Shown here: one piece after another, positions 3,621 through 25,800 of the stretch
Layout: each line of letters starts with the position of its first letter
Numbering within the stretch: position 1 is the first letter of the stretch
Source of the DNA: an uncultured Draconibacterium sp.
GTDB lineage: Bacteria > Bacteroidota > Bacteroidia > Bacteroidales > FEN-979
Direction of reading: 5' to 3'
Length of the DNA: 64,000 nt
Assembly (NCBI GenBank): GCA_964355945.1
Contig: CAYHGE010000001.1
Span: 133,486 to 197,485, forward strand
Notes under the pieces: generated by a model
What the model saw: only the letters and a program-made list of their open reading frames with translations
Databases searched by the model: none
Told to the model about the DNA's origin: nothing
Position numbers and translations under genes: made by a program

Positions 3621-3626
3621 TTAGTC

Positions 3627-3659
3627 AGACCTTCCAGGTTTTCGAAACCTGGAAGGTCT
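3627..3659 (-). terminator. Perfect 15-bp-stem hairpin between the two T9SS cargo genes, with no U-tract
   Basis: AGACCTTCCAGGTTT-TCG-AAACCTGGAAGGTCT. It lies 11 nt downstream of the upstream gene's stop codon and 7 nt upstream of the carboxypeptidase ATG. Confidence 0.5.
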
Positions 3660-3670
3660 TATAGGGTCGT

Positions 3671-6600
3671 TTATCGTAACACCACCTTCTCCATCCAGGT
3701 TTCATGCTCCCCTGTTATCCGGATGAAATATATTCCTTTTGCAAATCCCGAAAGGTCGAGCTGATTTAAGTTTGTTCCAGTTTTTGAATTCAAAACGTCA
3801 GTATATACAACCTGCCCCTGAAGATTCATCACAGCCAAATTGACTTTCCCGGGACAATTGGAAATTGTAACGTTAAACAATCCCTGTGACGGGTTCGGAT
3901 AGATGTTTACGATCGGTTGTTTTTGAATGTTGCCAGGTGTTCCAACTGGTCCGCTGACCTGGATATCGTTCAGGAAAAGGTTATTGCCATAACGGTTATA
4001 CGATTCAAACATCAGCTTGACATTCTTGTTCCCGGCCCAGGGTGAAAGGTCGATGGAGTAACATCCTGTGCCGTAACTTCCTCCGCACCATTCCTCCGCC
4101 GATTCCGGGTAAAATGCGCTGTCTGTACTCGGGTGGGTGACAAAAACTGCGGGAGTTCCATCTGGCCCCATGCCCCAGACACGTTGCCAGGTACTTCCGC
4201 AATTGTCTGAAATTCTGATGATGAGGGAATCTTTTCGAACGCGTTGTTCATACGCATGCCTGAAGCTAAGCATCACCGAGGTGTAACCAGACAGGTTCAG
4301 CGACGGGCTGACCAGCTGATCCCTTTTGTTGAGTGTGGAATAGCTGAAGAAATTCATGAAGATGGCTTTTGAGCCAGGCAAGGTGCCTCCAACTGTGATG
4401 GTATCCCATGTAACTCCCATGTCGGGATTCAGGATTTGCCAGTGTTTTGTGTCGATCCCGGTTTCAAACGATTCGGTAAATGGTATTGAATAGCCGTCTT
4501 TGACAATATAATCCAGTCGTGTAAGGGTATTATTCCCTGCCGAGTTCACGATGGTTAAGCGAACATCATACTGTCCTGATGAATCAAACTGAACAACCGG
4601 ATTTTGGCTGGTGTTTGAGGTTCCTTCGAGGTAGGTAATGGTGTTGGGATTAAATTCCCAGATCCATGCCGACGGGCAATTCGTGGATTTGTCGATGAAA
4701 TGAACCACGTTATCCTCGCAAAGCACAAACTGGTCGGCAGTGAAGTTTGCAACCGGGAGGAGTGTGCTGCTTACTGTAATGAAGTTTGTCCTGGTGATGG
4801 AATCTGACCCGAATTCATTCCACACTTTAAGTTTTACGGTAAAGGTGCCCGCTGCGTTGTAAACGATACCGGATGGATTTTTCATCGATGATGTTGAAGG
4901 ACTGCCTCCCTGGAATTCCCATTGGAAGGAGGTTGGTACGCCATTGGAATGATCGCTGAAATCGACAGCACAACCAACAGGAACAACCGTCAGGGCAGTG
5001 GTAAAGTCTGCTTGCGGGTTTGTGTGGTACATGTCAGAGCTCCACAATCCCCTTCCGTACGTACTGGCCCGGATGGCATCCTGCGATACCGAGTCATTGT
5101 CGTAATAGATTTCCAGTTCGGTTATGCGGCCATTGGCAGGCAATCCGGTCCGGAAGGGAGTCCAGCCGGAGGAGGTTTCATCCCTGTAGTAAACGCCCGC
5201 ATCTGTGCCAACATACAATCCTTCATGGGCATTGCGATAACATGTGATTGTGTTTTTGGTGATGGCTGGCAGGTTTCCGGTGATGTTGGTCCAGGAAACA
5301 CCTTTGTTGACTGATTTGTACACTCCTGTTCCCATGGTGATAAAGACAATGTTTTCATCTGCCGGATGACTTTCGATATCATTCGGGGTTCCTGAAGCAG
5401 GGAGGGAATTCGACAAGTCGGACCATGCAGGGTTTGTGGCAAGACAGTTATCGCTCCGAAACAATTTGTTGTCGGAGCGGGCGGCGAAGAACACGTTTGG
5501 ATTTGCTGATGAGTGTTCGACAACAGCCATGTCGGAGCCGTTGGAGCCTGCCAGGTTTTCAGAGATTTTCGTCCAGATAATCGGATAATTAATCACATTG
5601 GAACACCTCCAGATGTTCTTGTACCCGACGAACATTCCCTTGTGATCGGCTTTATTCAGGCAAAACGGGGTTACCCATGCACCACTTTCCGTGATTCCGT
5701 GCACCCCGTTTCCTGCGATCTGGGTTTCACCACCATTGTTGTTCTTCCGGAAGATGTCGCCATAATAGATTGTATGATACGAATAGGCTGCATTTTCATA
5801 ATCAATGGCACACTCCATGCCATCACCACCGCCGGTAGCAAGCCACCCGCTGGGAGTATATGTATAGGTGCCGTTGTCCTGAAAACCATTGATCACCTTA
5901 TTTTTAACCGTTGCTGACTGACCGATTTTATAGATCTGGCCAATGGTCATTCCCACCGTCCGGTCGGTCCATGTGGTTCCGCCGTTGGCCGTAACCCAGC
6001 AGCCTCCGTCGTTACCGGCATATAGTTTGCCGTCAACCGGCGAAAATCCCAGGAAATGGCAGTCGGCATGCACTGCAGGAACGCTGCATCCACCATACCA
6101 GTGAGAGTTTATTGTCCACGTAGAACCGCCATTGGTGGATTTCCAGACATCCACCCCACCGGTATAAATAATCTCACCATTTATGGGATCTGCTGCGATT
6201 GAAAGATCATACCACCCCTGGCCACCTGAGCCGCTGCCATCGCACGACCAGTCCATGATGTTGGGTGAAGTCGATCGGGTGGTAAAGGTCAACCCTGCAT
6301 CGCTCGAACGGTAAAGTCCTTTGAATCCGCTGCTGCCATCGGATTGCAGGAAGTAAACGTACGCCGGACTGGCTGGCGTGACTGCGATTGCACCACGCTG
6401 ACCGCCGGTTAGTCCGGCAGTAATTTTCACGAAGGTAATTCCATTGTTTGAGGAGCGGTAAAAATCGGCCCCTAATGCAGCATAAACGACATAAGAGTCA
6501 TCCGGTTTGAAATGGATGTCTTTGAAATTTCCCGATTGGCTTAAAGTCCATGTTGTTCCGCCGTCGACAGAGCGATAGACCCCGCCGCTGGTGGCGGCAA

Positions 6601-7336
6601 GAAAAATCTGGGCATTGGCAGGATCCTGGATCATGCGTCCAACGGTTTTGCTTCCCATACCGGTAGTTGACAAGGCCCATGTCAATCCGCCATTTATGCT
6701 TTTGAATACTCCGAGGCCGGGAGCATCTCCGGCATCGCGGTCGCCTGTACCCATTAAAATATGGTCGGGATTGGTGTAGTCAACCACGATGGCCGACACA
6801 CCCAGGGTAGGCAATGTGTCCGTGTGGGATGCCCAGGTATCACCACCATCGGTTGATTGCCACAAACCTCCTGCAGGAGCGCCAACATAAATTTTGTTTG
6901 GGTCGGCAGGGTGGAAGGCGACCACATTGAGTCGTCCCAAACCTTCATATCCGGCAGGGCCGGGAGCCGGAATCTGCGAAGGACCGAGGTTTACCCACGA
7001 GCCGCTTGTGGAGCGCGTGTTGTTTGCGTAGGCGCTGTAAGTTTTGTAGGTTTCATCGGGAGCGCGACGGCTGCCATCAGGATTTATGCGGCTTTGCATC
7101 ATGTATTCCCAGCGCTTGAAGACCTTCCAGCCATGGCTGCGGGTAATTGCCCGGTCTTTCCAGTACATGTTAAATGCACGTTGCGTCTGAAAAAAGTTGG
7201 CATCAGGATTCTGCATCATTTCGATCCAGTAGGGGTAGTTGGCGGTGTCATTCACCGACGAATTGGAGGGAGTCTGTGTTTGTCCAGACATTACAAATAG
7301 TAGAATGACCGTAAGCAGGAGTAAGGTTCGTTTCAT
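3671..7336 (-). CDS. Large secreted BNR/Asp-box (sortilin/VPS10-like) repeat protein with PKD-like and MAM-like domains and a T9SS sorting domain
   Basis: Asp-box repeats are STDGGDTW, SINGGLTW, SVDGGTTW, STNGGSTW and TANGGTTW. The C-terminus (NIYPNPSQGLFNV...GIYFIRI) is T9SS-type. I moved the start to the ATG at 7336, which gives the signal peptide MKRTLLLLTVILLF. Confidence 0.8.
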   Translation of the reverse strand: MKRTLLLLTVILLFVMSGQTQTPSNSSVNDTANYPYWIEMMQNPDANFFQTQRAFNMYWKDRAITRSHGWKVFKRWEYMMQSRINPDGSRRAPDETYKTYSAYANNTRSTSGSWVNLGPSQIPAPGPAGYEGLGRLNVVAFHPADPNKIYVGAPAGGLWQSTDGGDTWASHTDTLPTLGVSAIVVDYTNPDHILMGTGDRDAGDAPGLGVFKSINGGLTWALSTTGMGSKTVGRMIQDPANAQIFLAATSGGVYRSVDGGTTWTLSQSGNFKDIHFKPDDSYVVYAALGADFYRSSNNGITFVKITAGLTGGQRGAIAVTPASPAYVYFLQSDGSSGFKGLYRSSDAGLTFTTRSTSPNIMDWSCDGSGSGGQGWYDLSIAADPINGEIIYTGGVDVWKSTNGGSTWTINSHWYGGCSVPAVHADCHFLGFSPVDGKLYAGNDGGCWVTANGGTTWTDRTVGMTIGQIYKIGQSATVKNKVINGFQDNGTYTYTPSGWLATGGGDGMECAIDYENAAYSYHTIYYGDIFRKNNNGGETQIAGNGVHGITESGAWVTPFCLNKADHKGMFVGYKNIWRCSNVINYPIIWTKISENLAGSNGSDMAVVEHSSANPNVFFAARSDNKLFRSDNCLATNPAWSDLSNSLPASGTPNDIESHPADENIVFITMGTGVYKSVNKGVSWTNITGNLPAITKNTITCYRNAHEGLYVGTDAGVYYRDETSSGWTPFRTGLPANGRITELEIYYDNDSVSQDAIRASTYGRGLWSSDMYHTNPQADFTTALTVVPVGCAVDFSDHSNGVPTSFQWEFQGGSPSTSSMKNPSGIVYNAAGTFTVKLKVWNEFGSDSITRTNFITVSSTLLPVANFTADQFVLCEDNVVHFIDKSTNCPSAWIWEFNPNTITYLEGTSNTSQNPVVQFDSSGQYDVRLTIVNSAGNNTLTRLDYIVKDGYSIPFTESFETGIDTKHWQILNPDMGVTWDTITVGGTLPGSKAIFMNFFSYSTLNKRDQLVSPSLNLSGYTSVMLSFRHAYEQRVRKDSLIIRISDNCGSTWQRVWGMGPDGTPAVFVTHPSTDSAFYPESAEEWCGGSYGTGCYSIDLSPWAGNKNVKLMFESYNRYGNNLFLNDIQVSGPVGTPGNIQKQPIVNIYPNPSQGLFNVTISNCPGKVNLAVMNLQGQVVYTDVLNSKTGTNLNQLDLSGFAKGIYFIRITGEHETWMEKVVLR

Positions 7337-7470
7337 TAAGCAGAGAGTTTGGATTAGGTTGTAAAGGTACAAAAAAAGTGTATAGGCGGAAGTAACGGCA
7401 AGGTTGAATCTGGTAAAGAAGATTCGAGTTAATTGATTTATGTATTTAATAATACTATTAAATTTGTTAA

Positions 7471-8100
7471 TTATTCGGGCCGAAGGCTTTTTAATATCAC
7501 CGTTGTGTTTTCCCGTTTCCGATGATCCATGAGGTTTTGGTATTCAGAATCCTGCATGGTTGTTATTGTCTTCAGGAAAGGGCCGGCGATAAACAATCCC
7601 AAATTCATGGAGAGGATCGTGAGCAAAAGTCCGGTTGCGGTCATGGGGCGGATGGCGCCCTTTTCTATTTCGAGGTTTAATTCACTTTCAATCTGTGATA
7701 TAAATGAATTTTCGGAATTTCCAATTTGTACTTTAAGTTGATTGAGCCGGGAAGGGCTTGTGTTTATTTCATTGAAGAAAAGAAATGGCAGTCCGGGGTT
7801 TGCCATCATGACATCAAAGTGTATCTCAACTTTTTTTCGCACTTTTTCTTCGAATGAAAGATGATCTTCCATTCGTTGAAGAAGGGAAGATATAAAGATC
7901 GTGGAGTGTTTTTCAAATACAGCATCAAAAAGCCGGTCCTTCGTGCGGAAATAGTAGTGAACCAGTGCCTGGTTGCAACCGGCGATCTTTGCAATTTCAG
8001 TGGTTGAGGTTAATGAATAACCTTTTTCCAGGAATAACTTCTCTGCGGTTGCAAGGATTAACTGTTCGGTGGTGATGTTTTGAGTCAGATCTTTTTTCAT
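7471..8100 (-). CDS. TetR/AcrR family transcriptional regulator
   Basis: The N-terminal HTH segment is TSTTEIAKIAGCNQALVHYYFRTKDRLF. The length is 209 aa. Confidence 0.85.
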   Translation of the reverse strand: MKKDLTQNITTEQLILATAEKLFLEKGYSLTSTTEIAKIAGCNQALVHYYFRTKDRLFDAVFEKHSTIFISSLLQRMEDHLSFEEKVRKKVEIHFDVMMANPGLPFLFFNEINTSPSRLNQLKVQIGNSENSFISQIESELNLEIEKGAIRPMTATGLLLTILSMNLGLFIAGPFLKTITTMQDSEYQNLMDHRKRENTTVILKSLRPE

Positions 8101-8200: not shown

Positions 8201-8998
8201 TCAGTAAGTCCCTTTTGATTCAGCTCCGGTAACGACATCAACACTGGCGCCGCAGCCCAGCCGGTTTGCTCCTGCATTGATCAAAGCCACAGCCTGGTCG
8301 AAATTCCTGATACCGCCACTGGCCTTGACACCCATGGCCGGGCCGACGATCCTGCGCATCAGGGCGACATCGTGGATGGTTGCACCCGTGCCTGAGAATC
8401 CGGTACTGGTCTTGACAAAATCAGCTCCGGCTTTCTTTGAAATTTCGCAGGCGATGATTTTTTCTTCATCGGTCAGCAGCCCTGTTTCGAGGATAACTTT
8501 TAAAATGGTGGTGCTCCTGCATGCTCTTTTAATGGCCCGGATATCTTCTTCGACTAACTTTACATTGCCGGATTTCAGGGCGCCCACATTGATTACCATG
8601 TCAAGTTCTGTTGCACCATTGGCCACCGCATTGCGTGCTTCAAAGGCTTTGCTGCGCGTATCCATCTCGCCAAGGGGAAACCCGATGACGGAGCAGACTT
8701 TAACACTCGTTCCACGGAGTCTCTTTGCCACAAAAGGAATCCACGAGGAGTTCACGCATACTGACATGAATTTGTATTTCACCGCTTCGTTGCAGAGCTG
8801 TTCAAACTGGAAAACCACTGCTTCCGGTTTTAGCAGGGTATGATCGATGTATCCGGCAAGTTCTGCAGCTGATATCCGCGGAGCAGGAGAGGACCTGGTA
8901 ACAGGGTCCCCGGTTTTATTGCTGCGGGTCGCGATCTCCTGGTTCAGCCGCTGCATGACCTCTTTCGTGATCTTGTCAATCAATTCATTTTGATCCAT
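8201..8998 (-). CDS. deoC: Deoxyribose-phosphate aldolase (DERA) with an N-terminal extension of about 45 aa
   Basis: DERA motifs are present: YIDHTLLKP, ELDMVINVG, LKVILETG and DFVKTSTGF (the Schiff-base Lys motif). At 265 aa it is longer than typical DERAs of about 220 aa. Confidence 0.9.
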   Translation of the reverse strand: MDQNELIDKITKEVMQRLNQEIATRSNKTGDPVTRSSPAPRISAAELAGYIDHTLLKPEAVVFQFEQLCNEAVKYKFMSVCVNSSWIPFVAKRLRGTSVKVCSVIGFPLGEMDTRSKAFEARNAVANGATELDMVINVGALKSGNVKLVEEDIRAIKRACRSTTILKVILETGLLTDEEKIIACEISKKAGADFVKTSTGFSGTGATIHDVALMRRIVGPAMGVKASGGIRNFDQAVALINAGANRLGCGASVDVVTGAESKGTY

Positions 8999-8999
8999 G

Positions 9000-9455
9000 T
9001 TATTTCCCTTCCCTTTCTATTGACATCATTTTATTAATCCGCGGCCAGTGCCTGCCGCCTTCAAATTTTGTTTCAAGCCACAATTTCGCCATTGCACACA
9101 GCTCTTCCTTCGGATGCTGGGCAGTTCCCATCGTCAGCACATTCGCATTGTTATGCTCGCGGCTGTTGACGATCGTTGCCGTGCTCCAGCATAAGGCTGC
9201 CCTGATGCCATGAACCTTGTTACACACCATGGAAGAGCCGATACCCGCGCCATCCAGCATGATTCCCCGTTCACAGTCCCCGGTCACTACTTTCTGGGCT
9301 ACGGCATGTGCGAAATCAGGATAATCCACTTTATCCGTACTATTATTGGTGCCAACATCGACCATCTTATACCCGGCACTTTCGAGATATCTGATCAGCA
9401 TCTCCTTTGCAAGATATGATCCGTGATCAGCACCGATGGCTACTTTTTTAATCAT
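9000..9455 (-). CDS. rpiB: RpiB/LacA/LacB-family sugar-phosphate isomerase
   Basis: Family motifs are VAIGADHGS, NKVHGIRAALC, EHNNANVLTMG and FEGGRH. The first M in the ORF track is a TTG codon; I prefer the ATG at 9455 (MIKKVAIG). Confidence 0.85.
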   Translation of the reverse strand: MIKKVAIGADHGSYLAKEMLIRYLESAGYKMVDVGTNNSTDKVDYPDFAHAVAQKVVTGDCERGIMLDGAGIGSSMVCNKVHGIRAALCWSTATIVNSREHNNANVLTMGTAQHPKEELCAMAKLWLETKFEGGRHWPRINKMMSIEREGK

Positions 9456-9488
9456 TCGCCTGTATTTCTCTAATCTTTTCAAAATATT

Positions 9489-9770
9489 TCAAACATTGGA
9501 ATCATACTGGATTTTATCCACGATTCCTGCTATAACAGCTTTCACTGTGAATGTATCCGGTTCACCAAGGATTAAACGTGCCGAACCGCCTTCTTCCATG
9601 ATCAGCACGATATCTCCGGGACCTGCCTGCATGGTATCAACCGCAAGAAATGACCTGCCGATGGCTTTTCCATCGGGTTTAACGGGTTGAACAACCAAAA
9701 TCTTCCTGGATTCATACCCGACTGCTTTTATGGTAGAAACCACATTCCCGGTAACTTTCGCCAATATCAT
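9489..9770 (-). CDS. BMC-P pentameric vertex shell protein (EutN/CcmL/PduN family), paralogue 4
   Basis: The N-terminus MILAKVTGNVVSTIK is family-typical and the length is 93 aa. Its ATG overlaps the upstream stop codon (ATGA). Confidence 0.9.
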   Translation of the reverse strand: MILAKVTGNVVSTIKAVGYESRKILVVQPVKPDGKAIGRSFLAVDTMQAGPGDIVLIMEEGGSARLILGEPDTFTVKAVIAGIVDKIQYDSNV

Positions 9771-10042
9771 TTTTTGTCCTCCAGATGAATGTTGTCCACG
9801 ATCCCCACGATTGCAGCATCACAGGGATTCATCAGCGTTTCAAGAACCCTTCCGGCCTCTTTGCTTGTTTCGTAATAGATCAGTTCGCCGATGCCCGACT
9901 GGATTGTGTCGAAAGCAACGAGCGGATCTCCATACGGGACGAGATGCTCATCAACAGGTTGCACAAGCATCAGTTTGATGCCTTCAAACTCGAAGACTTT
10001 CTTCGTGCTTACAACTCTGCCGGTGACTCTTCCAAGTTTCAT
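9767..10042 (-). CDS. BMC-P pentameric vertex shell protein (EutN/CcmL/PduN family), paralogue 3
   Basis: The N-terminus is MKLGRVTGRVVSTKK, followed by ...LVAFDT...AIVGIVD. The length is 91 aa. Confidence 0.9.
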   Translation of the reverse strand: MKLGRVTGRVVSTKKVFEFEGIKLMLVQPVDEHLVPYGDPLVAFDTIQSGIGELIYYETSKEAGRVLETLMNPCDAAIVGIVDNIHLEDKK

Positions 10043-10079
10043 AGCAATCGTTTCTTTTTGATTAACCTCATCCCCTGCA

Positions 10080-10103
10080 CCCCTTCTCCTGAAGGAGAAG
10101 GGG
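10080..10103 (-). other. Perfect 10-bp-stem hairpin inside the BMC operon
   Basis: CCCCTTCTCC-TGAA-GGAGAAGGGG sits in the 121-nt gap between the aldehyde dehydrogenase stop and the next BMC-P start. No U-tract follows it. Confidence 0.6.
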
Positions 10104-10163
10104 ACGGGCGTGGTTCATTTTTCATCAGGTCGTTTTATCACTTTCAGCGATTTGTTTCCGGGA

Positions 10164-11582
10164 TCAAATTATCCTGAAATAGTCAACCAGCGTACACCTG
10201 CGTTCCCGGGAGAAAGTTCTCGCCCTGGTAACGCCTTCACCGGTAGGGCTGGCAATGGTGAAGGATGCAAACCCGGCACCGCCTTGGCCCAGCCCTGCAT
10301 AGCTGGGGCCATTTTTGATAAAGATCGAGCAATTCATCGCTTTGGCCATTTTGCTGAGCTTGGCAATATTGAGGGAGTGCATGATGGCGGTGTGCCGGAA
10401 TCCATGTTCACATTCAACAGCAAGATCAATGGCGGCATCCACGTCTTTCACACGCACCAGGGGCATGACCGGCATCAGCTGTTCGGTCCATACGAGGGGA
10501 TGTTCCTTCCCCACTTCACAAAGCAGGAGCCGGGTTGATGGCGGCACTGTAAGCCCGATTTCCCTGGCAATGGCATCTGCATTCTTGCCGATATACTTCT
10601 TCTCAGCGGCCCCTTCTTTTCCCGGACCACCCGGATCAGAGATAACCAGTGCGGTGATTTTTTTAATTTGTTCAGGATTTAATTCGAAGGCACCGTTTTT
10701 AACCAGCTCTGCTTTTAACCGGTCGGCAACCGATTCAACAACGATGATCTCTTTCTCGCAAATGCAGATGATGTTGTTGTCGAAACCGGCACCATTGACA
10801 ATATCCCTGCCGGCTTTGGCCAGGTCGGCGGTTTCATCCACCACGCAGGGCGGGTTTCCCGGGCCTGCGGCAATGACCTTTTTCCCGCTGTTCATGGCAA
10901 CTTTCACAACGGCGGGGCCGCCTGTGACAACCAGGATGGCAATATCCGGGTGCGACATCAGGCTTTTTGCAGAATCAATGGTTGGTTCATCGATGCAGGT
11001 AAGCAAATTTGCCGGTCCGCCGGCTTCCATGATTGCATGATTAAGCAACGTGATGAGCCATCCGGAGACCTTCTTTGCAGAAGGATGCGGATTAAACACC
11101 ACCGAATTGCCGGCAGCGATCATGCCAATGCTGTTGCTGATGATGGTCACCGTCGGATTTGTACTGGGCGTGATGGAACCGATTACGCCATAGGGCGCAC
11201 GTTCTACAAGAGTTAATCCGTCATCATCCGAATAGGATTCTGATACAATATCTTCGACTCCGGGTGTTTTATGAATTCCCAGGCTGTTTTTAATGATCTT
11301 GTCTTCCCATCGCCCAAGGCCGGTCTCTTCATGGGCCATCCTGGAGATGTTTTCGTTGTTGGCAAGCGCGGTTTTACGGATACTCGTGATGATGTTTTTC
11401 CGGGTTTCCAGGGTTGATCTACTGAACTCCCTGAAAGCCAGTCCGGCAGCTGTAATCGCCTCATTGATGTTAGAAAACACCCCTGCATTTTTTGAAGAAG
11501 CCGCCGTTTTTTGCGGAAAGATGTTCATGTCCTGGATGACGTCCTGCACCAGCTGGCGTATGTTTTTTTCAAGATTGTCCAT
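10164..11582 (-). CDS. CoA-acylating aldehyde dehydrogenase (EutE/PduP-like) with an N-terminal amphipathic extension
   Basis: At 472 aa, it carries the catalytic Cys region GAGFDNNIICICEKE and the C-terminus RRCTLVDYFRII. An AGGAGGG SD lies 8 nt upstream of the ATG. Confidence 0.9.
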   Translation of the reverse strand: MDNLEKNIRQLVQDVIQDMNIFPQKTAASSKNAGVFSNINEAITAAGLAFREFSRSTLETRKNIITSIRKTALANNENISRMAHEETGLGRWEDKIIKNSLGIHKTPGVEDIVSESYSDDDGLTLVERAPYGVIGSITPSTNPTVTIISNSIGMIAAGNSVVFNPHPSAKKVSGWLITLLNHAIMEAGGPANLLTCIDEPTIDSAKSLMSHPDIAILVVTGGPAVVKVAMNSGKKVIAAGPGNPPCVVDETADLAKAGRDIVNGAGFDNNIICICEKEIIVVESVADRLKAELVKNGAFELNPEQIKKITALVISDPGGPGKEGAAEKKYIGKNADAIAREIGLTVPPSTRLLLCEVGKEHPLVWTEQLMPVMPLVRVKDVDAAIDLAVECEHGFRHTAIMHSLNIAKLSKMAKAMNCSIFIKNGPSYAGLGQGGAGFASFTIASPTGEGVTRARTFSRERRCTLVDYFRII

Positions 11583-12140
11583 TTACTTGCCCTCCTGCTG
11601 TAGGAAATATGGTTTTATTTCAGGGTGTGGCTGCGGGATCAGTGTTGACATGCAAAGCAGATCTTTCTCCCGGGCTTTGGCTGTTCCGGCTTCCAGGGCT
11701 GCCTCCATGGCATCCAGCGTTCCGAGCATTTTAACATAAGATTTACCTCCAAAACCGATGGCCAGCCTGATTTCTATTAGTTTAATATTGCTCTCTTTTG
11801 CTGCGAGGTCGGCGGCTTCAATGCTGGATACCACGGATAATGTTTCAATGATTCCGATGGCGTTCCAGTGATCGCAGGCAACAACGTTTCCGATGGCTGG
11901 AACAAGGTCCGGATGGGCCATGGGAAGAAACAGACTGTCGATGATGAAATTTTTACCGATTTCGAAACCTTTATTAAACGAGTATTCCACAGATGCAACA
12001 TCCCCGCTGAAGACGATCAGGTATTTGCCGGGGCAAAGCGTCCTGGCTTCAATGATTCTGACCGGAGCAATCTTTACCATTTCATCCAGTGCCTTGATCC
12101 CGATAGCAATGCTGCTATACTCCAATACCCCCAAAACCAT
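11583..12140 (-). CDS. BMC-T tandem-domain shell protein, PduT-like
   Basis: It has two BMC repeats in about 185 aa (LGVLEYSSIAIG... and IGIIETLSVVSSIEAAD...). The segment RTLCPGKYLIVFSGDV resembles the PduT Fe-S cluster Cys motif (TICPGKF). The first ORF-track M is a TTG; an ATG is at 12140. Confidence 0.8.
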   Translation of the reverse strand: MVLGVLEYSSIAIGIKALDEMVKIAPVRIIEARTLCPGKYLIVFSGDVASVEYSFNKGFEIGKNFIIDSLFLPMAHPDLVPAIGNVVACDHWNAIGIIETLSVVSSIEAADLAAKESNIKLIEIRLAIGFGGKSYVKMLGTLDAMEAALEAGTAKAREKDLLCMSTLIPQPHPEIKPYFLQQEGK

Positions 12141-12159
12141 CAATTCCGCCGATCCCTCA

Positions 12160-12447
12160 TTATTTCATGTATGTAACCTGCTCATTTTCATCAATCTTGT
12201 CGACAATCCCCACGATCAGTGCATCAACTGGCTTGTTGGTCGTAAGCGGTGTTTCCCTGGAAGGGCTGCCTTCCGTGACCATCACCAGTTCATCATGACC
12301 TGCACCTAGAACATCGAGTGCAACAAGGTAGTCTCCTTTTCTTTCACCATGCTGATTTGACTTCTCAACCAGGAGATATCGGGCTCCGTTCATGCTGTCA
12401 TTTCTTGAACTGCAAACGACTGTTCCGACTACTTTGGCTAGGATCAT
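12160..12447 (-). CDS. BMC-P pentameric vertex shell protein (EutN/CcmL/PduN family), paralogue 2
   Basis: The N-terminus is MILAKVVGTVVCSSR, followed by ...LVALDVLGAG...LIVGIVDKI. The length is 95 aa. Confidence 0.9.
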   Translation of the reverse strand: MILAKVVGTVVCSSRNDSMNGARYLLVEKSNQHGERKGDYLVALDVLGAGHDELVMVTEGSPSRETPLTTNKPVDALIVGIVDKIDENEQVTYMK

Positions 12448-12454
12448 GGGTCAG

Positions 12455-12751
12455 TTACCTGTTTTTCTGATACGTAAACGCGCCATCCTTTTCAATGTGA
12501 TCCACAATGGCAATGACGGCAGAATCAGAAGGCTTTCCTTCGGTCACATCGGTATTCCTGGCACTGCTGCCGGATACATAGAATACGATGTCTCCCGGTC
12601 CAGCACCCACACTGTCCATGGAAACGACAAAGTCACCTTTGCCTTTCATGCTCACAGGGTCGATTTTATCGAGTAGGAGGAATTTTATCCCTTCTATTTT
12701 CTGTGACTTATGACTGGAAACGACTGTTCCCACTACTCTTGCCAGAACCAT
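12455..12751 (-). CDS. BMC-P pentameric vertex shell protein (EutN/CcmL/PduN family), paralogue 1
   Basis: The N-terminus is MVLARVVGTVVSSHK, followed by ...VVSMDSVGAGPGD...AVIAIVDHI. The length is 98 aa. Confidence 0.9.
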   Translation of the reverse strand: MVLARVVGTVVSSHKSQKIEGIKFLLLDKIDPVSMKGKGDFVVSMDSVGAGPGDIVFYVSGSSARNTDVTEGKPSDSAVIAIVDHIEKDGAFTYQKNR

Positions 12752-12754
12752 TTT

Positions 12755-12790
12755 GATTTACGATTGGGGGATTTACGATTTACGATTTGA
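12755..12790. repeat. Imperfect 7-bp tandem repeat (GATTTAC) in the BMC-H / BMC-P spacer
   Basis: The sequence reads GATTTAC GATTGGG G GATTTAC GATTTAC GATTTGA. Confidence 0.8.
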
Positions 12791-12796
12791 GGTTTG

Positions 12797-13099
12797 CTAT
12801 TTTTTGGTGGTGCCTCTGCCCAATGGTAAAGCGCTGTCAACATTCTGGTGAGGTCTTGGGATGACGTGGGATGAAACAAGTTCACCGACTTTCTGGGCAG
12901 CCTGAACGCCGGCATCCACTGCAGCTCTTACTGAGGCAACATCACCGCGGACGATTGCAGTGACGTATCCACCACCAATTTTTTCGTAACCGACCAATTC
13001 TACTTTGGCAGCTTTTACCATTGCATCCGATGCCTCCACCATGGCGGAAAAGCCCCTGGTTTCTATCATTCCCAATGCTTCTGAAGTTTGATCATTCAT
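12797..13099 (-). CDS. BMC-H hexameric shell protein (PduA/EutM/CcmK-like)
   Basis: It carries the canonical BMC domain: [65 protein letters not shown] precedes the ATG. Confidence 0.95.
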
Positions 13100-13133
13100 G
13101 ATTATTTCTCCTTATTGATTAGTTGTTTATGTT

Positions 13134-13757
13134 TTATTTGTAATCCTCCCTGCCGGATATTTCGGCCAGGCGTTGTTCCACAATTGTTTTACATTCAAGT
13201 ACTTCTGCTTCTTCACCGCCAATATAGACCCTGCCGAACTTGCCAAATCCCATCACATCGATGATGTTGATATGGGCTGCTTTTTCTGCTTCATTGGCGG
13301 CATAATAGGCATATCCGGCGGGCTCAACTTCGAGGACAAACAGTGTGTCGCCTCTCAGCAGCATCATGCCCATCCGGGTCCGGTTGATCAGCTGGGCATG
13401 GTGATCTTCCACATTTTTAATCAGCTGACTTGTCAGGATCCGTGGTTTTATCCTGTCAAATTCAATTTTGTCGATGGCTTTCAACACCGCTTCGCCTGCC
13501 ATACGGGTTTCGCCCTGGCTGTCGGAATGGACTTCCAGCATGCCATAAGCCCTTTCGACGATTTGCATGCCCGGTGTTACACGGGTTGCCTTCAGGGCAA
13601 TGTCGGTGAGGGTGTTGATCTCTATTCCGGGCGCTATTTCTATGATACAGCATGCCTGTCCTGCAACAGGGAGGTAACCTCTTGATACGGTTGAGAGGTA
13701 AGAGGCCATCTGTAATTGCAGGGAGTCCAGAAAAATGTAGGTTCTTAGATCAATCAT
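13134..13757 (-). CDS. BMC-T tandem permuted-domain shell protein, CcmP/CsoS1D-like (double-stacking, gated-pore type)
   Basis: It is colinear by eye with CcmP: LRTYIFLDSLQ, GIEINTLTDIALKATRV.PG, YGMLEVHS, QLINRTRMG, LFVLEVEPAGYA and ANEAEKAA. The ORF-track start at 13787 is a TTG; I prefer the ATG at 13757 (MIDLRTY). Confidence 0.8.
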   Translation of the reverse strand: MIDLRTYIFLDSLQLQMASYLSTVSRGYLPVAGQACCIIEIAPGIEINTLTDIALKATRVTPGMQIVERAYGMLEVHSDSQGETRMAGEAVLKAIDKIEFDRIKPRILTSQLIKNVEDHHAQLINRTRMGMMLLRGDTLFVLEVEPAGYAYYAANEAEKAAHINIIDVMGFGKFGRVYIGGEEAEVLECKTIVEQRLAEISGREDYK

Positions 13758-13861
13758 GGTTGCTTTTTTTATACCGCTAAGGCGCAAAGACGCAAATAAA
13801 TAAGAAAACCGTTGCTTTTTAGCGTCTTGCCGTCTTCGCGGTGAATAAGGACTTTATGTTG

Positions 13862-13869
13862 CAAAGATA
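13862..13869 (-). promoter_or_regulatory. Candidate Bacteroidota sigma-A -7 box (TATCTTTG on the minus strand) for the BMC operon
   Basis: It matches TAnnTTTG and lies about 105 nt upstream of the first BMC gene's ATG. Confidence 0.4.
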
Positions 13870-13957
13870 GTTTTTTATACAACAATATTTAATGGTGATT
13901 TGCATCAAAAGATCATTTTTGAAACAGCCAAGATCGAGCTTTGAAATTTAAAAATCC

Positions 13958-13965
13958 TACCTTTG
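13958..13965 (+). promoter_or_regulatory. Candidate -7 box TACCTTTG for rlmF
   Basis: It matches TAnnTTTG and lies 14 nt upstream of the ATG at 13979. The same octamer recurs upstream of two other genes in this window. Confidence 0.5.
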
Positions 13966-13978
13966 TTCAAAAAACACC

Positions 13979-14947
13979 ATGCTCCCGAAGAAGAAAGACC
14001 ACCCCAAAGAAAAAACCAGGTTGCATCCCCGGAACAGGCATCGTGAGCGGTATGATTTTAAAGCACTTGTGGCAACCTGCCCGGAATTGGCTCAGTTCGT
14101 TACCCTGAATGTTTACAAAGACGAATCAATTGCCTTTTCAGATCCTGAAGCGGTGAAGATGCTGAACAAAGCGTTGCTTAATCACTTCTACGGCATCAGC
14201 AGCTGGGATATACCACCCGGGTATTTATGTCCGCCCATCCCGGGTCGGGCCGATTATATCCATCATCTTGCTGATTTATTGGGCAGCAAAAACTTTGGGA
14301 AAATACCAACAGGCGTGAATATCAGGTGTCTGGATATAGGAACAGGTGCCAATTGCGTTTATCCGATCATCGGGAACAAAGAATATGGCTGGTCGTTTAT
14401 CGGTTCTGATATTGATCCGGTTGCCATCGAATCTGCGAATAAAATTATTGACCTGAACACTGAATTAAAAGAATCTGTTGTTGTTCGTTTACAGCCTCAG
14501 CCCAATGATATTTTTTTCGGGATCATCCAACCTGAAGAGCTCTTCGATTTGTCTGTTTGTAATCCTCCGTTTCACGGTTCTCAAGCTGAAGCACAGTCAG
14601 GCACACTGAGGAAGCTGAATAACCTCAATCCGCAAAAGGTGACTGAGCCCGTTTTAAATTTCGGAGGCCAGAACAGTGAATTGTGGTGCAAGGGAGGCGA
14701 GGAGAAATTTGTGCGGGACATGGTTCGGCAAAGCAAATTTTTCGCTGAATCCTGTTTTTGGTATTCCACGCTTATTTCTAAACAATCCCATCTGAAAAGT
14801 GTGTATGAAGCATTGGAAAAAGAACGGGCTGTTGAGGTGAAGACGATCCCGATGGGCCAGGGAAATAAATCGAGCAGGGTGGTGGCCTGGACATTTCTTA
14901 CCCATGAGCAGCAAGGAGCCTGGCGCAATTCAAGATGGAAAGGTTAA
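13979..14947 (+). CDS. rlmF: 23S rRNA (adenine1618-N6)-methyltransferase RlmF
   Basis: Motifs are LHPRNRHRERYDF, CLDIGTGANCVYP and the N6-MTase motif CNPPFH. The length is 322 aa. Confidence 0.85.
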   Translation: MLPKKKDHPKEKTRLHPRNRHRERYDFKALVATCPELAQFVTLNVYKDESIAFSDPEAVKMLNKALLNHFYGISSWDIPPGYLCPPIPGRADYIHHLADLLGSKNFGKIPTGVNIRCLDIGTGANCVYPIIGNKEYGWSFIGSDIDPVAIESANKIIDLNTELKESVVVRLQPQPNDIFFGIIQPEELFDLSVCNPPFHGSQAEAQSGTLRKLNNLNPQKVTEPVLNFGGQNSELWCKGGEEKFVRDMVRQSKFFAESCFWYSTLISKQSHLKSVYEALEKERAVEVKTIPMGQGNKSSRVVAWTFLTHEQQGAWRNSRWKG

Positions 14948-14951
14948 GTAT

Positions 14952-16995
14952 ATGAAAGTCTCAGAGTTGAAAAAAATGCTGCCTTATGGCGTTGCAGTCA
15001 TTATTTTCCTTTGCATCACGCTGGTTTACTTTTACCCGCTTCTCGAGGGGAAAAAGATTTACCAGTACGATATCGTCAATTTCAAAGGTGTATCCAAAGA
15101 GATTTCAGATTTCAGGGATAAGACCGGGCATGAGCCGCTATGGACCAACTCGATGTACGGTGGTATGCCTGCCTACCAGGTATCCACCCGTTATCCGGGC
15201 AACCTGACAGGGTATATTGATACAATCCTCAGCCTTGGGCTTCCCCACCCGGCAAACGTTGTTTTTCTATACCTGATTGGATTCTTCATTCTGCTCCTGG
15301 CCATGAAAGTTGATCCCTGGCTCTCCATAGCCGGGGCTATTGCATTTGGGTTCTCCTCCTTCTTTTTCATCATCATTGAGGTCGGGCACAACTCCCAGGC
15401 TCATGCCATTGCCTATATGGCGCCTGTCATGGCAGGGGTTATCCTCACCCTGCGCAGAAAATTTCTCATCGGAGGCATCCTGACTGCGATCTTTCTCTCG
15501 CTTGAAGTAAAGGCCAATCATCCCCAGATCACCTATTACCTGGCAATGATCATCCTGTTGTACCTGGCTTTCAGGCTGTTTCAGTCCATCAGGGAAAAAG
15601 AGGCATTCCCTTTTTTTAAAGCTTGCGGAATTCTGGCAGTGGCAGTCGTCTTTGCCGTGCTTACGAACATAACAACACTATGGGCTACCCTTGAATATAC
15701 AAAGTTTACGGTTCGGGGAAAATCGGAACTGACAACCGACAAGCAGAACCGGACTGCAGGGATTGACCGTGATTATGCCACCCACTGGAGTTACGGCATT
15801 GGGGAAACCATGACCCTGCTGATCCCGAATATGTATGGTGGCGCATCAGGAATGAAGGTTAAAGAAAGCTCGGAGCTGGTCAAAGCCATGCAGAATAATG
15901 GTGTTGAGGAGGGAACGATCCGCCAGTTTATCAGTCAGCCAGTGCCATACCTCTATTATTGGGGAAATCAGCCCAGCACTTCCGGGCCGGTATATGTCGG
16001 TGCGATCATTTGTTTCCTTTTCTTCCTAGGACTTTTTGTGATCAGGGGTTATCTGAAATGGTGGCTACTTGCGGCCACGTTGCTCTCCATCATTCTTGCC
16101 TGGGGGCATAATTTTATGATTGCCACTGATTTGTTTCTTGATTATTTCCCCGGGTACAACAAGTTCAGGGCGGTTACGATGATTCTGGTCATTGCTGAGT
16201 TCACCATGCCACTGATGGCGATGCTTGCAGTGAAGGCGGTTTTGGAGAATCAGACTGATAAGAAGAGAAATGAAAGGGCACTTCAGATAACGTTTGGCAT
16301 CATCGGGGGGATTTGCCTTCTCTTCGCTGCCTTCCCGAGCTTGTTTTTTGATTTTATCTCACCGGGTGATGCGGAGCTTGGCCGACAGTTTCCCGACTGG
16401 TTCATGACTGCTGTGAGGGCCGACCGGAAAGACCTTCTCCAGAGTGATGCACGGAACAGCTTCATATTCATCACTTTTACTGCATTGCTCCTTCTGGGAG
16501 TGATGAAAGGAAAGATCAAAATAGCATACCTTGCTCCGGCGCTGGCACTCTTATTTCTTGCAGATATGTTTACTGTGAGTAAAAGGTACCTGAACAACGA
16601 TAATTTCACCTCAGCCTCCTCACTGGTGGTGCCATATGAGCCTACTTCCGCCGACCAACAGGTTTTACGTGATACGGATCCGGTTGCTGACGTATGCGCC
16701 AAACCTGCTAACCTGTAACTATCGTTCCCGCAACACAGGGCTTGCTGTTTTTTCAGAAATCTGGTATCCCAAAGGTTGGAACGCCTACGTAGACGGGCAG
16801 CTCACTCCGCATTTCCGGGCCAATTATGTGTTGCGGTCGATGGTGTTGCCTGCCGGGAATCACAAACTGGAGTTTCGTTTCGAACCCCGGGTATATGCCA
16901 TTGGAGAAAGAGTTTCAATGGTCAGTTCGCTGTTACTGTTACTCCTTTTGCTAGGCATAGGGCTGAAAGAAATGGTTATAATATTAAGGAGATAG
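14952..16995 (+). pseudogene. YfhO-family polytopic membrane protein, split over two reading frames (frameshift and probably an internal deletion)
   Basis: Frame A (ATG 14952 to the stop at 16718) encodes the multi-TM body. The conserved C-terminal block (LTYAPN...LAVFSEIWYPKGWNAYVDG...FRANYVLRSM..PAG.HK.EFRFEP) lies in the +1 frame (16636-16995) and overlaps frame A by 83 nt. Confidence 0.6.
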
Positions 16996-17002: not shown

Positions 17003-17197
17003 TTGTATCTGTTATTGCATCTGTTTTTAAATATTATTTGGAACGAGCAAAAAGGCAAACTCAAACAGAAATTCGCCATCTTAACCGACAATGACCTGAT
17101 GTTCAAAGAAGGCAGGAAAGATGAAATGCTGGGCAGGCTTCAGGCCAAACTTGGCAAAACAAAGGAAGAGCTGATGAAGATCATCGCAACGATTTAA
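17003..17197 (+). CDS. CsbD-family stress-response protein, start codon uncertain
   Basis: It carries the CsbD signature [45 protein letters not shown]. There is no in-frame ATG after the upstream stop at 16985-16987, only TTG, CTG or ATT candidates. Confidence 0.6.
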
Positions 17198-24999: not shown

Positions 25000-25007
25000 G
25001 CCGAACA

Positions 25008-25199
25008 ATGCTGCGGGATGTATTCAAGTCGATTGGGGGCTTCGAAAGCTATGGATTAATCTCCATGATCATTTTCGGTGCGTTCTTTATGATGCTGATT
25101 CTTCACACCATCTCTCTCAAAAAGAAGGATGTAGAAGATTTCGGTCGCATGCCGCTGGATGATAATTCAAAGGAATCAGATAAAATTCAAGACAGTTAA
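25008..25199 (+). CDS. CcoQ-like small membrane subunit
   Basis: It is a 63-aa single-TM protein located between ccoNO and ccoP. Confidence 0.6.
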   Translation: MLRDVFKSIGGFESYGLISMIIFGAFFMMLILHTISLKKKDVEDFGRMPLDDNSKESDKIQDS

Positions 25200-25211
25200 A
25201 AAATATTTTCT

Positions 25212-25799: not shown

Positions 25800-25800
25800 T

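Follow-up and report, generated by a model that had tools for sequence, protein, structure and literature searches.

An SPU2-type microcompartment operon of an uncultured Bacteroidales, with a probable route from deoxyribose 5-phosphate to acetyl-CoA

The ten genes at positions 8201-13757 of the window (the whole 64-kb stretch of DNA that was analysed) probably form a bacterial microcompartment (BMC) operon of the sugar-phosphate-utilising subtype SPU2 in an uncultured member of the Bacteroidales, which would convert deoxyribose 5-phosphate (dR5P) into acetyl-CoA within a closed shell (we put this at about 0.75). The locus is an ordinary member of an already catalogued BMC type and not a new system.

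All ten open reading frames lie on the minus strand, in the order CcmP-like BMC-T (BMC-Tdp), BMC-H, BMC-P, BMC-P, PduT-like BMC-T (BMC-Ts), aldehyde dehydrogenase (AldDH), BMC-P, BMC-P, RpiB-like protein (RPI) and deoxyribose-5-phosphate aldolase (DERA). The gene content, order and tight packing described in the first-pass annotation are thus confirmed: the BMC-P genes at 9767-10042 and 9489-9770 share an ATGA overlap, RPI and DERA stand 1 nt apart, and AldDH follows BMC-Ts directly (0 nt). The one larger spacer (121 nt, 10043..10163, minus strand) separates AldDH from the third BMC-P and holds a perfect 10-bp hairpin at 10080-10103, which occurs once in the window and is common only to the 98%-identical MAG L006. 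Since the arrangement is repeated on independent assemblies and in this MAG, it is not an assembly artefact. The same gene order is common to at least 12 related loci of Bacteroidota and Spirochaetota (at least ten Bacteroidota MAGs are among the relatives matched); the Atribacteria locus L023 also has it, but with no BMC-Tdp match on its contig. The operon is under purifying selection (dN/dS against L007 of 0.01-0.10 for all ten genes).

Profile searches (PF00936, PF03319, PF02502, TIGR00126, PRK15398) bear out the families assigned earlier. Seven genes encode shell proteins, all on the minus strand. BMC-Tdp (13134..13757) is a CcmP-like double-stacking trimer of 207 aa when read from the ATG at 13757 (217 aa from an alternative TTG at 13787); the gene call for its counterpart in metagenome contig L001 is likewise 207 aa. 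It aligns end to end with both CcmP of the beta-carboxysome (PDB 5lsr/4ht5: 238 bits, E=1e-69) and BMC-T2/T3 of Haliangium ochraceum (5v76/5v74: 224-233 bits), and its E68/R69 (13551-13556) is aligned with the identical ER pair of CcmP, presumably forming the pore gate as it does there. A role as carboxysome part was considered and rejected: the score against the NCBIfam CcmP model NF053796 is 282 bits, below the equivalog cutoff of 340, and the protein is therefore a paralogous shell component. The main shell protein, hexameric BMC-H (12797..13099, 100 aa), matches PF00936 at E=8e-33 and NCBIfam EutM at 130.5 bits, and is 100% identical to the L006 copy; a second BMC-H, upstream of Tdp, is present in the nearest relatives (L007-L014), whereas the window has only one. 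The four pentameric vertex proteins all match PF03319: BMC-P 1 (12455..12751, 98 aa, E=1.3e-22), BMC-P 2 (12160..12447, 95 aa, E=3.9e-26), BMC-P 3 (9767..10042, 91 aa, E=1.1e-23) and BMC-P 4 (9489..9770, 93 aa, E=1.9e-22). A 95-aa 'kermit' green-clade BMC-P is present in the catalogued Bacteroidetes SPU2 loci (Sutter et al. 2021). The tandem-domain protein BMC-Ts (11583..12143) carries two PF00936 domains (E=6e-37) and aligns with PDB 3nwg (140 bits) and PduT 3n79 (125 bits), with E values of about 1e-35 to 1e-40 for the two; its pore cysteine C37 is kept (codon 12033-12035), with 'TLCPGKY' aligned to PduT 'TICPGKF'.

The three enzyme genes share the strand of the shell genes. The signature enzyme, DERA (8201..8998, 265 aa), scores 284 bits against TIGR00126 (cutoff 117) and 270 bits against PDB DERA 8qps, its domain running from residue 46 on. 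The triad D133/K196/K225, equivalent to E. coli D102/K167/K201, is invariant in the alignment. Before the domain stands an N-terminal extension of 45 aa (8864-8998) with an amphipathic helix at residues 5-22 (8933-8986); across phyla the helix is conserved and the linker variable. The CoA-acylating AldDH (10164..11582, 472 aa) reaches 682 bits with NCBIfam PRK15398 (cutoff 403) and 489 bits (E=2e-145) with PDB 5jfl, which we take to be the aldehyde dehydrogenase of the R. palustris BMC. Its catalytic Cys273 (10764-10766) is kept and aligns with the residue mutated in 5jfn. Residues 1-18 have a hydrophobic moment of 0.60, the highest of the whole protein, and the N-terminal amphipathic helix (11517-11582) is likely an encapsulation peptide (EP); such helices of AldDH and DERA are both conserved across phyla. 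The RPI (9000..9482; RpiB/LacAB family, PF02502 E=1.5e-48) is 160 aa long with a TTG start and 151 aa long if translation begins at the ATG at 9455. Its N-terminus is shorter than in relatives, with no EP left. An alignment to E. coli RpiB and C. thermocellum 3he8 shows Asp77 (9252-9254) in place of the catalytic Cys66 and Ala79 in place of Thr68; the pocket is otherwise conserved, and both replacements are SPU-specific.

Comparison with the SPU2 definition gives a match item by item. The SPU type was first named by Axen et al. (2014), and the 2021 catalogue lists 53 SPU2 loci, mostly from Bacteroidetes and Spirochaetes (Sutter et al. 2021, Supplementary Data 2). According to the same authors SPU2 loci encode AldDH, DERA and RPI as their only enzymes, together with one or two BMC-H, four BMC-P, a CcmP-like BMC-Tdp and a PduT-type BMC-Ts (Sutter et al. 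2021). Likewise, enzymes of the window locus are limited to AldDH, a PF01791 DERA and a PF02502 RPI; its shell set has four BMC-P, made up of a triplet and a further one, besides a CcmP-like BMC-Tdp and a BMC-Ts of PduT type with pore Cys; the EP of AldDH is N-terminal; the host phylum is Bacteroidetes; and, as in most members, PduS, PTAC and alcohol dehydrogenase (AlcDH) are absent. Two of our relatives come from genomes catalogued as SPU2: L023 (Atribacteria CG2_30_33_13), with the gene order of the window, and L024 (Bacteroidetes GWA2_30_7), a cut fragment whose DERA is 73% identical to ours. The differences (one BMC-H, an RPI without EP, a downstream TetR gene against DeoR in other members, and the lineage-specific hairpin in the AldDH-BMC-P spacer) are minor and inside the described variation. 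The earlier suggestion of an SPU-type locus is thereby substantiated, but the name 'PVM-like' offered with it belongs to loci of another type, whose core is a class II aldolase; no such enzyme is present here.

The only SPU system with purified enzymes is SPU6 of Chloroflexi bacterium GWB2_54_36 (Dwyer, Sutter & Kerfeld 2024, PMC11585597). It resembles the window in its DERA (N-terminal extension and Asp/Lys/Lys triad), the Cys66 to Asp exchange in RPI, and in having AldDH, BMC-Tdp and several BMC-P. However, SPU6 has three BMC-P against four, the order RPI-DERA-Tdp-H-P-AldDH-Ts-P-P (as in L041, L064 and L080), a C-terminal EP on AldDH, a GntR-family regulator, a DERA extension of ~70 aa and an RPI EP linker of ~75 aa. 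SPU-type shells of Hodarchaeales, which self-assemble in vitro and recruit EP-bearing enzymes (2025 preprint, PMC12747264), share the DERA and AldDH core, the same proposed chemistry from dR5P to acetyl-CoA and NADH, an oxygen-adapted host and a CPGK Fe-S motif in Ts; their flavoprotein-DERA fusion, citrate synthase-PTAC, MNdh/PduS and DNA-binding disordered tail on one BMC-P are absent in the window. With Eut and Pdu the locus has in common the shell families BMC-H, BMC-P and PduT, and the principle that a signature enzyme yields a volatile aldehyde which is consumed by an encapsulated CoA-acylating AldDH of the EutE/PduP family. Unlike these, it has no B12 genes and no PTAC and AlcDH for internal cofactor recycling, but does have a BMC-Tdp, found in neither canonical Eut nor Pdu. 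The statement that this is not a Pdu, Eut, Grm or carboxysome locus is correct: no diol dehydratase, ethanolamine ammonia-lyase, Grm or carboxysome signature enzyme is present at the locus (for the beta-carboxysome, RuBisCO, carbonic anhydrase and CcmM/N are all missing).

Based on these assignments we propose that the seven shell genes described above would build a closed protein shell, into which DERA and AldDH may be directed by their N-terminal amphipathic helices; RPI probably enters bound to DERA, because its own targeting peptide is lost. dR5P, presumably from breakdown of DNA or deoxynucleosides, might enter via the pore of BMC-H or the gated one of BMC-Tdp and would be split by DERA into GAP and acetaldehyde; AldDH (Cys273, NAD+, CoA) would then turn the trapped acetaldehyde into acetyl-CoA and NADH. 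This chemistry, already proposed in the first-pass annotation, is the same as the published model for the SPU type. Because PTAC, alcohol dehydrogenase and PduS are all missing from the locus, acetyl-CoA, CoA, NADH and NAD+ would have to cross the shell, most plausibly by the large gated CcmP-like pore, though such an exchange through BMC-Tdp is a conjecture. The direction of flux is most likely catabolic, from dR5P to acetyl-CoA. With bd and cbb3 terminal oxidases and a 2-oxoglutarate dehydrogenase among its genes, the host has the means to reoxidise NADH and to burn acetyl-CoA, in keeping with this direction.

DERA and the acylating AldDH both catalyse reversible reactions. It is conceivable, but quite improbable, that the pathway runs in the condensing direction: AldDH would reduce acetyl-CoA to acetaldehyde as NADH sink, DERA would join acetaldehyde and GAP into dR5P for further processing by the RPI-like enzyme, giving a store of carbon and electrons. 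With neither PTAC nor AlcDH the gene content is compatible with either direction. On the other hand, it is not obvious why a host with these terminal oxidases and 2-oxoglutarate dehydrogenase should need a fermentative NADH sink, and to our knowledge the characterised metabolosome AldDHs (PduP, EutE) run oxidatively in vivo. Moreover, RpiB-type chemistry cannot isomerise dR5P, which lacks a 2-OH, and SPU RPIs are in any case without the catalytic Cys and Thr. The condensing direction was put forward by Nobu et al. (2016; summarised in PMC6281690) for Atribacteria loci of a type that is represented here by L021-L023, with the gene order of the window. A relic cluster, decaying or silent, can be set aside almost entirely: the cluster lacks the PduS and second BMC-H that relatives have, and its RPI is without a targeting peptide, but these losses fall inside described SPU2 variation, while ten of ten reading frames and the catalytic residues are intact and the dN/dS range (0.01-0.10) is low.

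The conservation of RPI bears on another unlikely alternative to which we give some weight, namely that the compartment handles another or an additional sugar phosphate and the Asp-variant is a working enzyme feeding or draining DERA, so that 'dR5P utilisation' would be an incomplete description. Among 46 DERA-linked RPIs from ~ten phyla (mean pairwise identity 52%, minimum 32%), the pocket is strongly constrained: six of its eight core positions are at least 95% conserved, against 30 of 149 columns overall (p ~9e-4), and Asp occupies the Cys66 position in 46 of 46, as reported for all SPU RPIs (PMC11585597). The dN/dS of RPI against L007 (0.038) equals that of DERA (0.035), and an RPI-DERA fusion occurs in L013. 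Such fusions are also described for SPU3 loci, and RpiBs are noted to be often promiscuous (both per Dwyer, Sutter & Kerfeld, PMC11585597). However, no candidate substrate is known, and ligand binding or a DERA-binding surface, rather than catalysis, could explain the conservation. Purified SPU6 DERA is active on dR5P, whereas the RPI, with negligible isomerase activity on R5P, binds DERA in a complex that leaves DERA kinetics unchanged (PMC11585597). The role of the RPI partner is not accounted for by the catabolic dR5P reading. The claim that the locus stands out as the window's best candidate for an experimentally undescribed system, unusual for Bacteroidota, fails, since the catalogue already contains SPU2, with these signature enzymes and this shell set and most often in Bacteroidetes and Spirochaetes, and since the core enzymes of an SPU locus have been studied in vitro (PMC11585597); a new BMC type is accordingly highly unlikely. 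Part of its basis, the supposed lack of any biochemical characterisation, is contradicted by the purified SPU6 DERA and RPI (PMC11585597) and the assembled archaeal shells (PMC12747264). It does hold that the literature contains no enzyme assay or other experimental study of SPU2 and no in vivo proof for any SPU compartment; a cultured Atribacter carrying the cluster showed no BMCs in EM.

Genes for dR5P supply and acetyl-CoA fate, which the catabolic reading would lead one to expect, were not found in the 64-kb window: Pfam scans of ~30 large ORFs, together with tblastn searches using PduS, PduL and TPI, gave no deoA/B/D, deoK, nucleoside transporter, pta or ackA. Upstream of the operon lies a non-coding region (13758..13978, minus strand), likely the promoter region. 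A sigma-70 scan gave no enrichment; TATCTTTG at 13862-13869, 105 nt upstream of the first ATG, is a candidate -7 element by consensus match to TAnnTTTG, which we take to be the Bacteroidetes promoter consensus. On the other side, 100 nt downstream of DERA and on the same strand, a TetR-family gene (7471..8100, minus strand; PF00440 E=1.7e-13) is a candidate local regulator. Its family is not the sugar-phosphate-sensing DeoR or GntR, an observation that sits uneasily with dR5P use; L015, L023 and L025 have DeoR-family genes instead. No relative more distant than L006-L008 was found to have a TetR gene after DERA, and in L006, L007 and L008 it occupies the same position with identities of 96%, 62% and 60%.

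Ten consecutive minus-strand ORFs are found between 8201 and 13787 (ORF list for 5-20 kb of the window), and their gene families were assigned with Pfam and NCBIfam profiles. In transcriptional order they encode a CcmP-like tandem BMC protein (BMC-Tdp; 13134-13757; NCBIfam CcmP, 282 bits), a BMC-H (12797-13099; PF00936, E=8e-33), two BMC-P (12455-12751 and 12160-12447; PF03319), a two-domain PduT-like BMC-T (BMC-Ts; 11583-12143; PF00936, E=6e-37), an acylating aldehyde dehydrogenase (AldDH; 10164-11582; PRK15398, 682 bits), two further BMC-P (9767-10042 and 9489-9770; PF03319), an RpiB/LacAB-family protein (RPI; 9000-9482; PF02502, E=1.5e-48) and a deoxyribose-phosphate aldolase (DERA; 8201-8998; TIGR00126, 284 bits at a cutoff of 117). 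The shell genes (three PF00936-type and four PF03319) cluster within 5.6 kb. Third and fourth BMC-P genes share an ATGA overlap, while RPI and DERA are separated by 1 nt and BMC-Ts and AldDH by 0 nt; one larger spacer, of 121 nt, follows AldDH (10043-10163). The content, order and tight packing proposed for 8201-13757 by the first-pass annotation are borne out, and all families it had suggested checking with profiles (PF00936, PF03319, DeoC, RpiB and Aldedh) were found. The operon holds no enzyme genes beyond AldDH, DERA and RPI. A DERA of identical sequence, flanked by the same genes, is encoded on each of seven independent metagenome contigs. The locus is also present in the Bacteroidales MAG Ja1_bin-2221 (L006), where its proteins are 94-100% identical to those of the window. 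These occurrences show that it is real and did not arise through assembly.

The first-pass annotation had regarded the operon as the best candidate in the window for an experimentally undescribed system, though it noted that sugar-phosphate-utilising loci appear in BMC catalogues. The remark on catalogues was right and the claim of novelty is not supported: the sugar-phosphate utilisation (SPU) type was named by Axen et al. 2014 from eight loci, comprised over 280 loci spread across 26 phyla and divided into seven subtypes in Sutter et al. 2021, and received an experimental treatment in Dwyer, Sutter & Kerfeld 2024 (PMC11585597). The latter study includes biochemical work on DERA and RPI of subtype SPU6, of which the annotation had been unaware. 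For SPU2 we used the definition in the supplement of the 2021 catalogue: AldDH, DERA and RPI as enzymes (PTAC, AlcDH and TPI in few loci only), one or two BMC-H, a BMC-P triplet joined by one further copy of the green clade, and a BMC-Tdp from the CcmP-like clade, in Bacteroidetes, Spirochaetes and Atribacteria. The operon has the same enzyme set, with four BMC-P and one BMC-H. Judged by sequence, it agrees with the SPU type and the SPU2 subtype in every criterion tested.

To collect relatives, a genome collection was scanned with the window DERA and then searched by tblastn with each of the eleven window proteins. The order [H]-Tdp-H-P-P-Ts-AldDH-P-P-RPI-DERA is conserved in MAGs of Bacteroidales, Lentimicrobiaceae and Draconibacterium (L006-L014), so that the supposed rarity of such a compartment in Bacteroidota is not confirmed, and it recurs in three Spirochaetota loci (L017, L020 and L025). 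The locus of Atribacteria CG2_30_33_13 (L023) has the same gene order, but Tdp was not found on its contig. Shell proteins of this genome and of Bacteroidetes GWA2_30_7 are labelled 'bmcType=SPU2 (main)' in the catalogue trees; the latter genome is represented by a cut fragment (L024) with a DERA 73% identical to that of the window. SPU6-type loci (L041, L064 and L080, from Chloroflexota, Gemmatimonadota and others) have a gene order unlike the window's. On its content, gene order and homology to catalogued members, the locus is an SPU2 member, and thus a further Bacteroidales example of a catalogued, partly characterised kind. Where it departs from its nearest relatives, the differences are minor and stay within the range of variation described for SPU2. 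The nearest relatives have two BMC-H, the window locus one; PduS (Complex1_51K/RnfC/SLBB) lies between the second BMC-P and BMC-Ts in L017, L020 and L023, L023 also carries PduL, and L020 carries TPI. Using the relatives' copies as tblastn queries, we found no PduS, PduL/PTAC, TPI or second BMC-H in the 64-kb window: besides chance matches (E>2), only the known BMC-H and Ts were recovered.

The locus was also compared with two other compartment types. PVM and PVM-like BMCs, a label that had also been suggested, have as their signature a class II aldolase (PF00596), for lactaldehyde derived from fucose or rhamnose. PF00596 is absent among the ten genes and the window aldolase is a class I DeoC, so the locus is not PVM-like. 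Carboxysomes are defined by RuBisCO and carbonic anhydrase, accompanied by CcmK/L/M/N/O or CsoS genes. Both enzymes are missing from the operon and from the window ORFs that were scanned, in line with the first-pass annotation; since the likeness is limited to shell paralogues and the CcmP score falls under the equivalog cutoff, the locus is not a carboxysome.

The shell proteins themselves can be compared with known structures. BMC-Tdp has its best PDB matches in CcmP (5lsr/4ht5), with which it aligns end to end at 238 bits, against 176 bits for CsoS1D; its E/R pair, presumably the pore-gating pair, is identical in CcmP. In the catalogue, the Tdp proteins of Bacteroidetes SPU2 loci have lengths of 208-213 aa and carry the label 'ccmPlike'. 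The four BMC-P genes lie in two neighbouring pairs, and their products are about 31-39% identical to one another. BMC-Ts aligns with PduT and retains the pore cysteine C37 (codon 12033-12035) in a CPGK motif, which is also present in L006-L009, whereas the sister Bacteroidota loci L010-L014 have SSGK instead. According to the catalogue supplement, PduS co-occurs with BMC-Ts in about 25% of SPU2 loci and the pore Cys is kept in 80%. In the window C37 is kept although PduS is absent from the locus and from the 64 kb, which suggests either a distal redox partner in this lineage or a recent loss of PduS.

By analogy, the published SPU model most likely fits the window locus unmodified; the chemistry put forward in the first-pass annotation (acetaldehyde released by DERA and converted to acetyl-CoA by AldDH) is the same. 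In this model 2-deoxyribose-5-phosphate (dR5P) would pass into the shell, where DERA would split it into glyceraldehyde-3-phosphate (GAP) and acetaldehyde; the encapsulated AldDH would then form acetyl-CoA from acetaldehyde, NAD+ and CoA, after which GAP and acetyl-CoA would exit. Activity of DERA on dR5P and inactivity of RPI on R5P have been measured for SPU6 only (Dwyer et al. 2024, PMC11585597); the window locus itself shows the gene identities, catalytic residues, extensions, a conserved gene order and purifying selection, and from these we infer that the shell closes and encloses its cargo, by which routes metabolites pass, in which direction the flux runs and where the substrate comes from. 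Because PTAC, AlcDH and PduS are all missing from the locus, cofactors would not be recycled inside the shell. SPU subtypes without PTAC typically have a BMC-Tdp, and acetyl-CoA could get through the large gated pore of this protein (Dwyer et al. 2024, PMC11585597); the window locus conforms to this pattern.

The flux could also run the other way, as in the scheme of an 'NADH sink / aldehyde condensation' put forward for Atribacteria that ferment (PMC6281690). In the window, respiratory genes at 17194-19934, 22840-27207 and 38761-44419 encode a cytochrome bd oxidase, a cbb3 oxidase with fused CcoN-CcoO (719 aa), CcoP and CcoG, the E1 and E2 subunits of 2-oxoglutarate dehydrogenase (OGDH), and an FAD-dependent flavoprotein of the succinate-dehydrogenase/fumarate-reductase type (PF00890, PF02910). 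Given these genes, this Bacteroidales host respires oxygen, is no strict fermenter, and can respire NADH and oxidise acetyl-CoA. We therefore favour the catabolic direction and disfavour the reverse scheme. The surroundings of the operon consist of respiratory oxidases, OGDH, T9SS proteins and peptidases; a Pfam search of about 30 other large window ORFs gave no deo genes, nucleoside or other transporters, pta/ackA or another BMC locus.

Both enzymes of the proposed pathway retain their catalytic residues. In DERA, D133/K196/K225 correspond to the catalytic D102/K167/K201 of E. coli K-12 DeoC and are invariant in the alignment. AldDH scores 489 bits against PDB entry 5jfl, which we take to be the BMC aldehyde dehydrogenase of Rhodopseudomonas palustris, and in the alignment its Cys273 falls on the position that is mutated in 5jfn. 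Residues 1-18 of AldDH are the most amphipathic stretch of the protein (muH 0.60) and constitute a candidate encapsulation peptide (EP). The DERA fold starts at residue 46, preceded by a 45-aa extension. In this extension the first ~22 residues (MDQNELIDKITKEVMQRLNQEI) are conserved among Bacteroidota, Spirochaetota and Atribacteria, and a variable linker comes after them. A putative helix at residues 5-22 is conserved across phyla in the alignment, and DERAs of Streptococcus and other non-BMC sources match the window protein only from residue ~46. A conserved N-terminal segment followed by a variable linker has been described for all SPU DERAs (Dwyer et al. 2024, PMC11585597), and the catalogue supplement lists EPs for all SPU2 AldDH N-termini, for roughly one DERA in two and for one RPI in three.

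Five pairs of DERA and Asp-type RPI (L037, L039, L054, L057 and L078, from Acidimicrobiia, Vicinamibacterales and Acidobacteria MAGs) have no shell genes within about 10 kb. Had these been non-BMC pairs, the partnership of RPI and DERA would predate encapsulation. We rejected this reading: the DERAs have an N-terminal EP-like helix followed by a conserved Cys-rich motif, C-x-C-H-G-x4-C-C-P-D-R, so the pairs probably belong to fragmented BMC loci. Four other loci (L038, L073, L075 and L079) have DERA extensions that are Cys-rich but of a different kind. Such extensions may be metal- or Fe-S-binding parts of DERAs in fragmented BMC loci.

Alignment of RPI with the E. coli and C. thermocellum RpiB places Asp77 at the position of the catalytic Cys66 of the E. 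coli enzyme and Ala79 at Thr68, with H99/N100/R133/H134/R137 retained. The Cys-to-Asp change occurs in all SPU RPIs and has been linked to the missing R5P isomerase activity of the SPU6 protein (Dwyer et al. 2024, PMC11585597). The comparison was extended to 46 RPIs linked to a DERA, drawn from about ten phyla and with pairwise identities that average 52% and go down to 32%. Asp was found at the Cys66 position in 46/46; D9, H10, H99, R133 and R137 are 100% conserved, and N100 and H134 about 90%. Core positions that are >=95% conserved amount to 6/8, against 30/149 columns overall (p about 9e-4; 46 sequences). Relative to the related locus L007, dN/dS is 0.01-0.10 for all ten genes, RPI (0.038) being as constrained as DERA (0.035); dS is saturated and the ratios are approximate. 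This argues against a decaying locus and suggests that the RPI pocket still has a function, be it ligand binding or chemistry besides R5P isomerisation.

RPIs of Spirochaetota, Atribacteria and Victivallales carry a targeting helix ('..I(I/V)xNVVSGLY..') with a linker. The window RPI (9000-9482) is without it, having 12 residues (MKRLEKYRRMIKK) before the fold, or three if the ATG at 9455 is the start; about 15 linker residues are deleted in comparison to L007:9472-9999, and L017:9428-9997 was compared as well. A DERA-RPI complex has been demonstrated for SPU6 (Dwyer et al. 2024, PMC11585597). In the Bacteroidales MAG Bjer_18-Q3-R1-45 (L013:9512-10783) a single ORF of 423 aa, uninterrupted by a stop, covers both RPI and DERA; the locus has SPU2 gene order, and the DERA targeting helix has turned into an inter-domain linker. 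On account of this complex and this fusion, the simplest inference by analogy is that RPI would enter by piggy-backing on DERA. Published RPI-DERA fusions belong to SPU3 (Dwyer et al. 2024, PMC11585597), and the one in L013 may be an independent event.

Whether RPI is more than a dead packing scaffold can be argued from the same data. Its replacements are limited to Cys66 and Thr68, the residues of the 1,2-proton shift, a step that is impossible on a 2-deoxy sugar; the His and Arg residues and Asp9/His10 are kept. From RpiB enzymology we take the His equivalent to H99 to serve ring opening and the Arg residues to bind phosphate. RPI might, for example, open the furanose ring of dR5P and pass the open-chain aldehyde to DERA, or it may act on some other sugar phosphate. 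The conserved pocket, a dN/dS equal to that of DERA and the fusions in L013 and SPU3 leave some room for a working, Asp-dependent sugar-phosphate-binding protein tied to DERA; nonetheless we consider this reading unlikely.

With respect to regulation, DeoR genes are seen in L015, L023 and L025, whereas the window operon has a TetR-family gene (7471-8100, minus strand) 100 nt downstream. The spacer between AldDH and the third BMC-P contains a hairpin on the minus strand (10080-10103) with a perfect GC-rich 10-bp stem, CCCCTTCTCC-TTCA-GGAGAAGGGG, that is not followed by a T-run. The hairpin occurs nowhere else in the window and has no equivalent in the corresponding spacers of L007-L013. As it is shared only with the 98%-identical L006 and has a fold z-score of only -1.9, it was rejected as a conserved regulatory element. 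The hairpin may be a lineage-specific RNA-stability or attenuation element, and as such may divide the operon into a shell/AldDH and a BMC-P/RPI/DERA half. Neither sigma-70 promoters (6 against 9.6 in shuffles) nor intrinsic terminators (10 against 7.8) are enriched, as expected for Bacteroidota. At 13862-13869 (minus strand), 105 nt upstream of the first operon gene, TATCTTTG matches TAnnTTTG, which we take to be the Bacteroidetes -7 promoter consensus; no -33 TTTG was seen at suitable spacing from it, and the -7 element is a consensus match only.

By itself, one more Bacteroidales example of a BMC type known from several hundred loci changes little, and the remaining interest concerns the SPU type overall (in vivo function, cofactor exchange and the conserved Asp-variant RPI). 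SPU compartments are among the most widespread metabolosomes and are thought to recycle the deoxyribose of environmental DNA. The literature so far holds no demonstration of their function in a cell, and in the only cultured organism with such a cluster BMCs were not visible. The window locus offers a clean minimal template for reconstitution: ten genes, three enzymes, no PduS, PTAC or AlcDH, an oxygen-respiring host and an RPI without targeting peptide. It could be used to study how NAD+ and CoA are exchanged when internal recycling enzymes are lacking, and what part the Asp-variant RPI plays.

Elsewhere in the window, three plus-strand ORFs of 604, 307 and 318 aa (14904-16718, 32086-33009 and 53893-54849) have no Pfam match at E<=1e-4; the first resembles a polytopic membrane protein, and its ORF shares 44 nt with the end of the upstream methyltransferase gene. 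Three large secreted proteins with a T9SS C-terminal sorting domain (Por_Secre_tail) are encoded at 1095-7372 and 46049-47800: an M14 carboxypeptidase with PKD, a protein of about 1230 aa with PKD and a faint Sortilin/Vps10 match, and an FG-GAP repeat protein. Their sorting domains are consistent with a Bacteroidota host.
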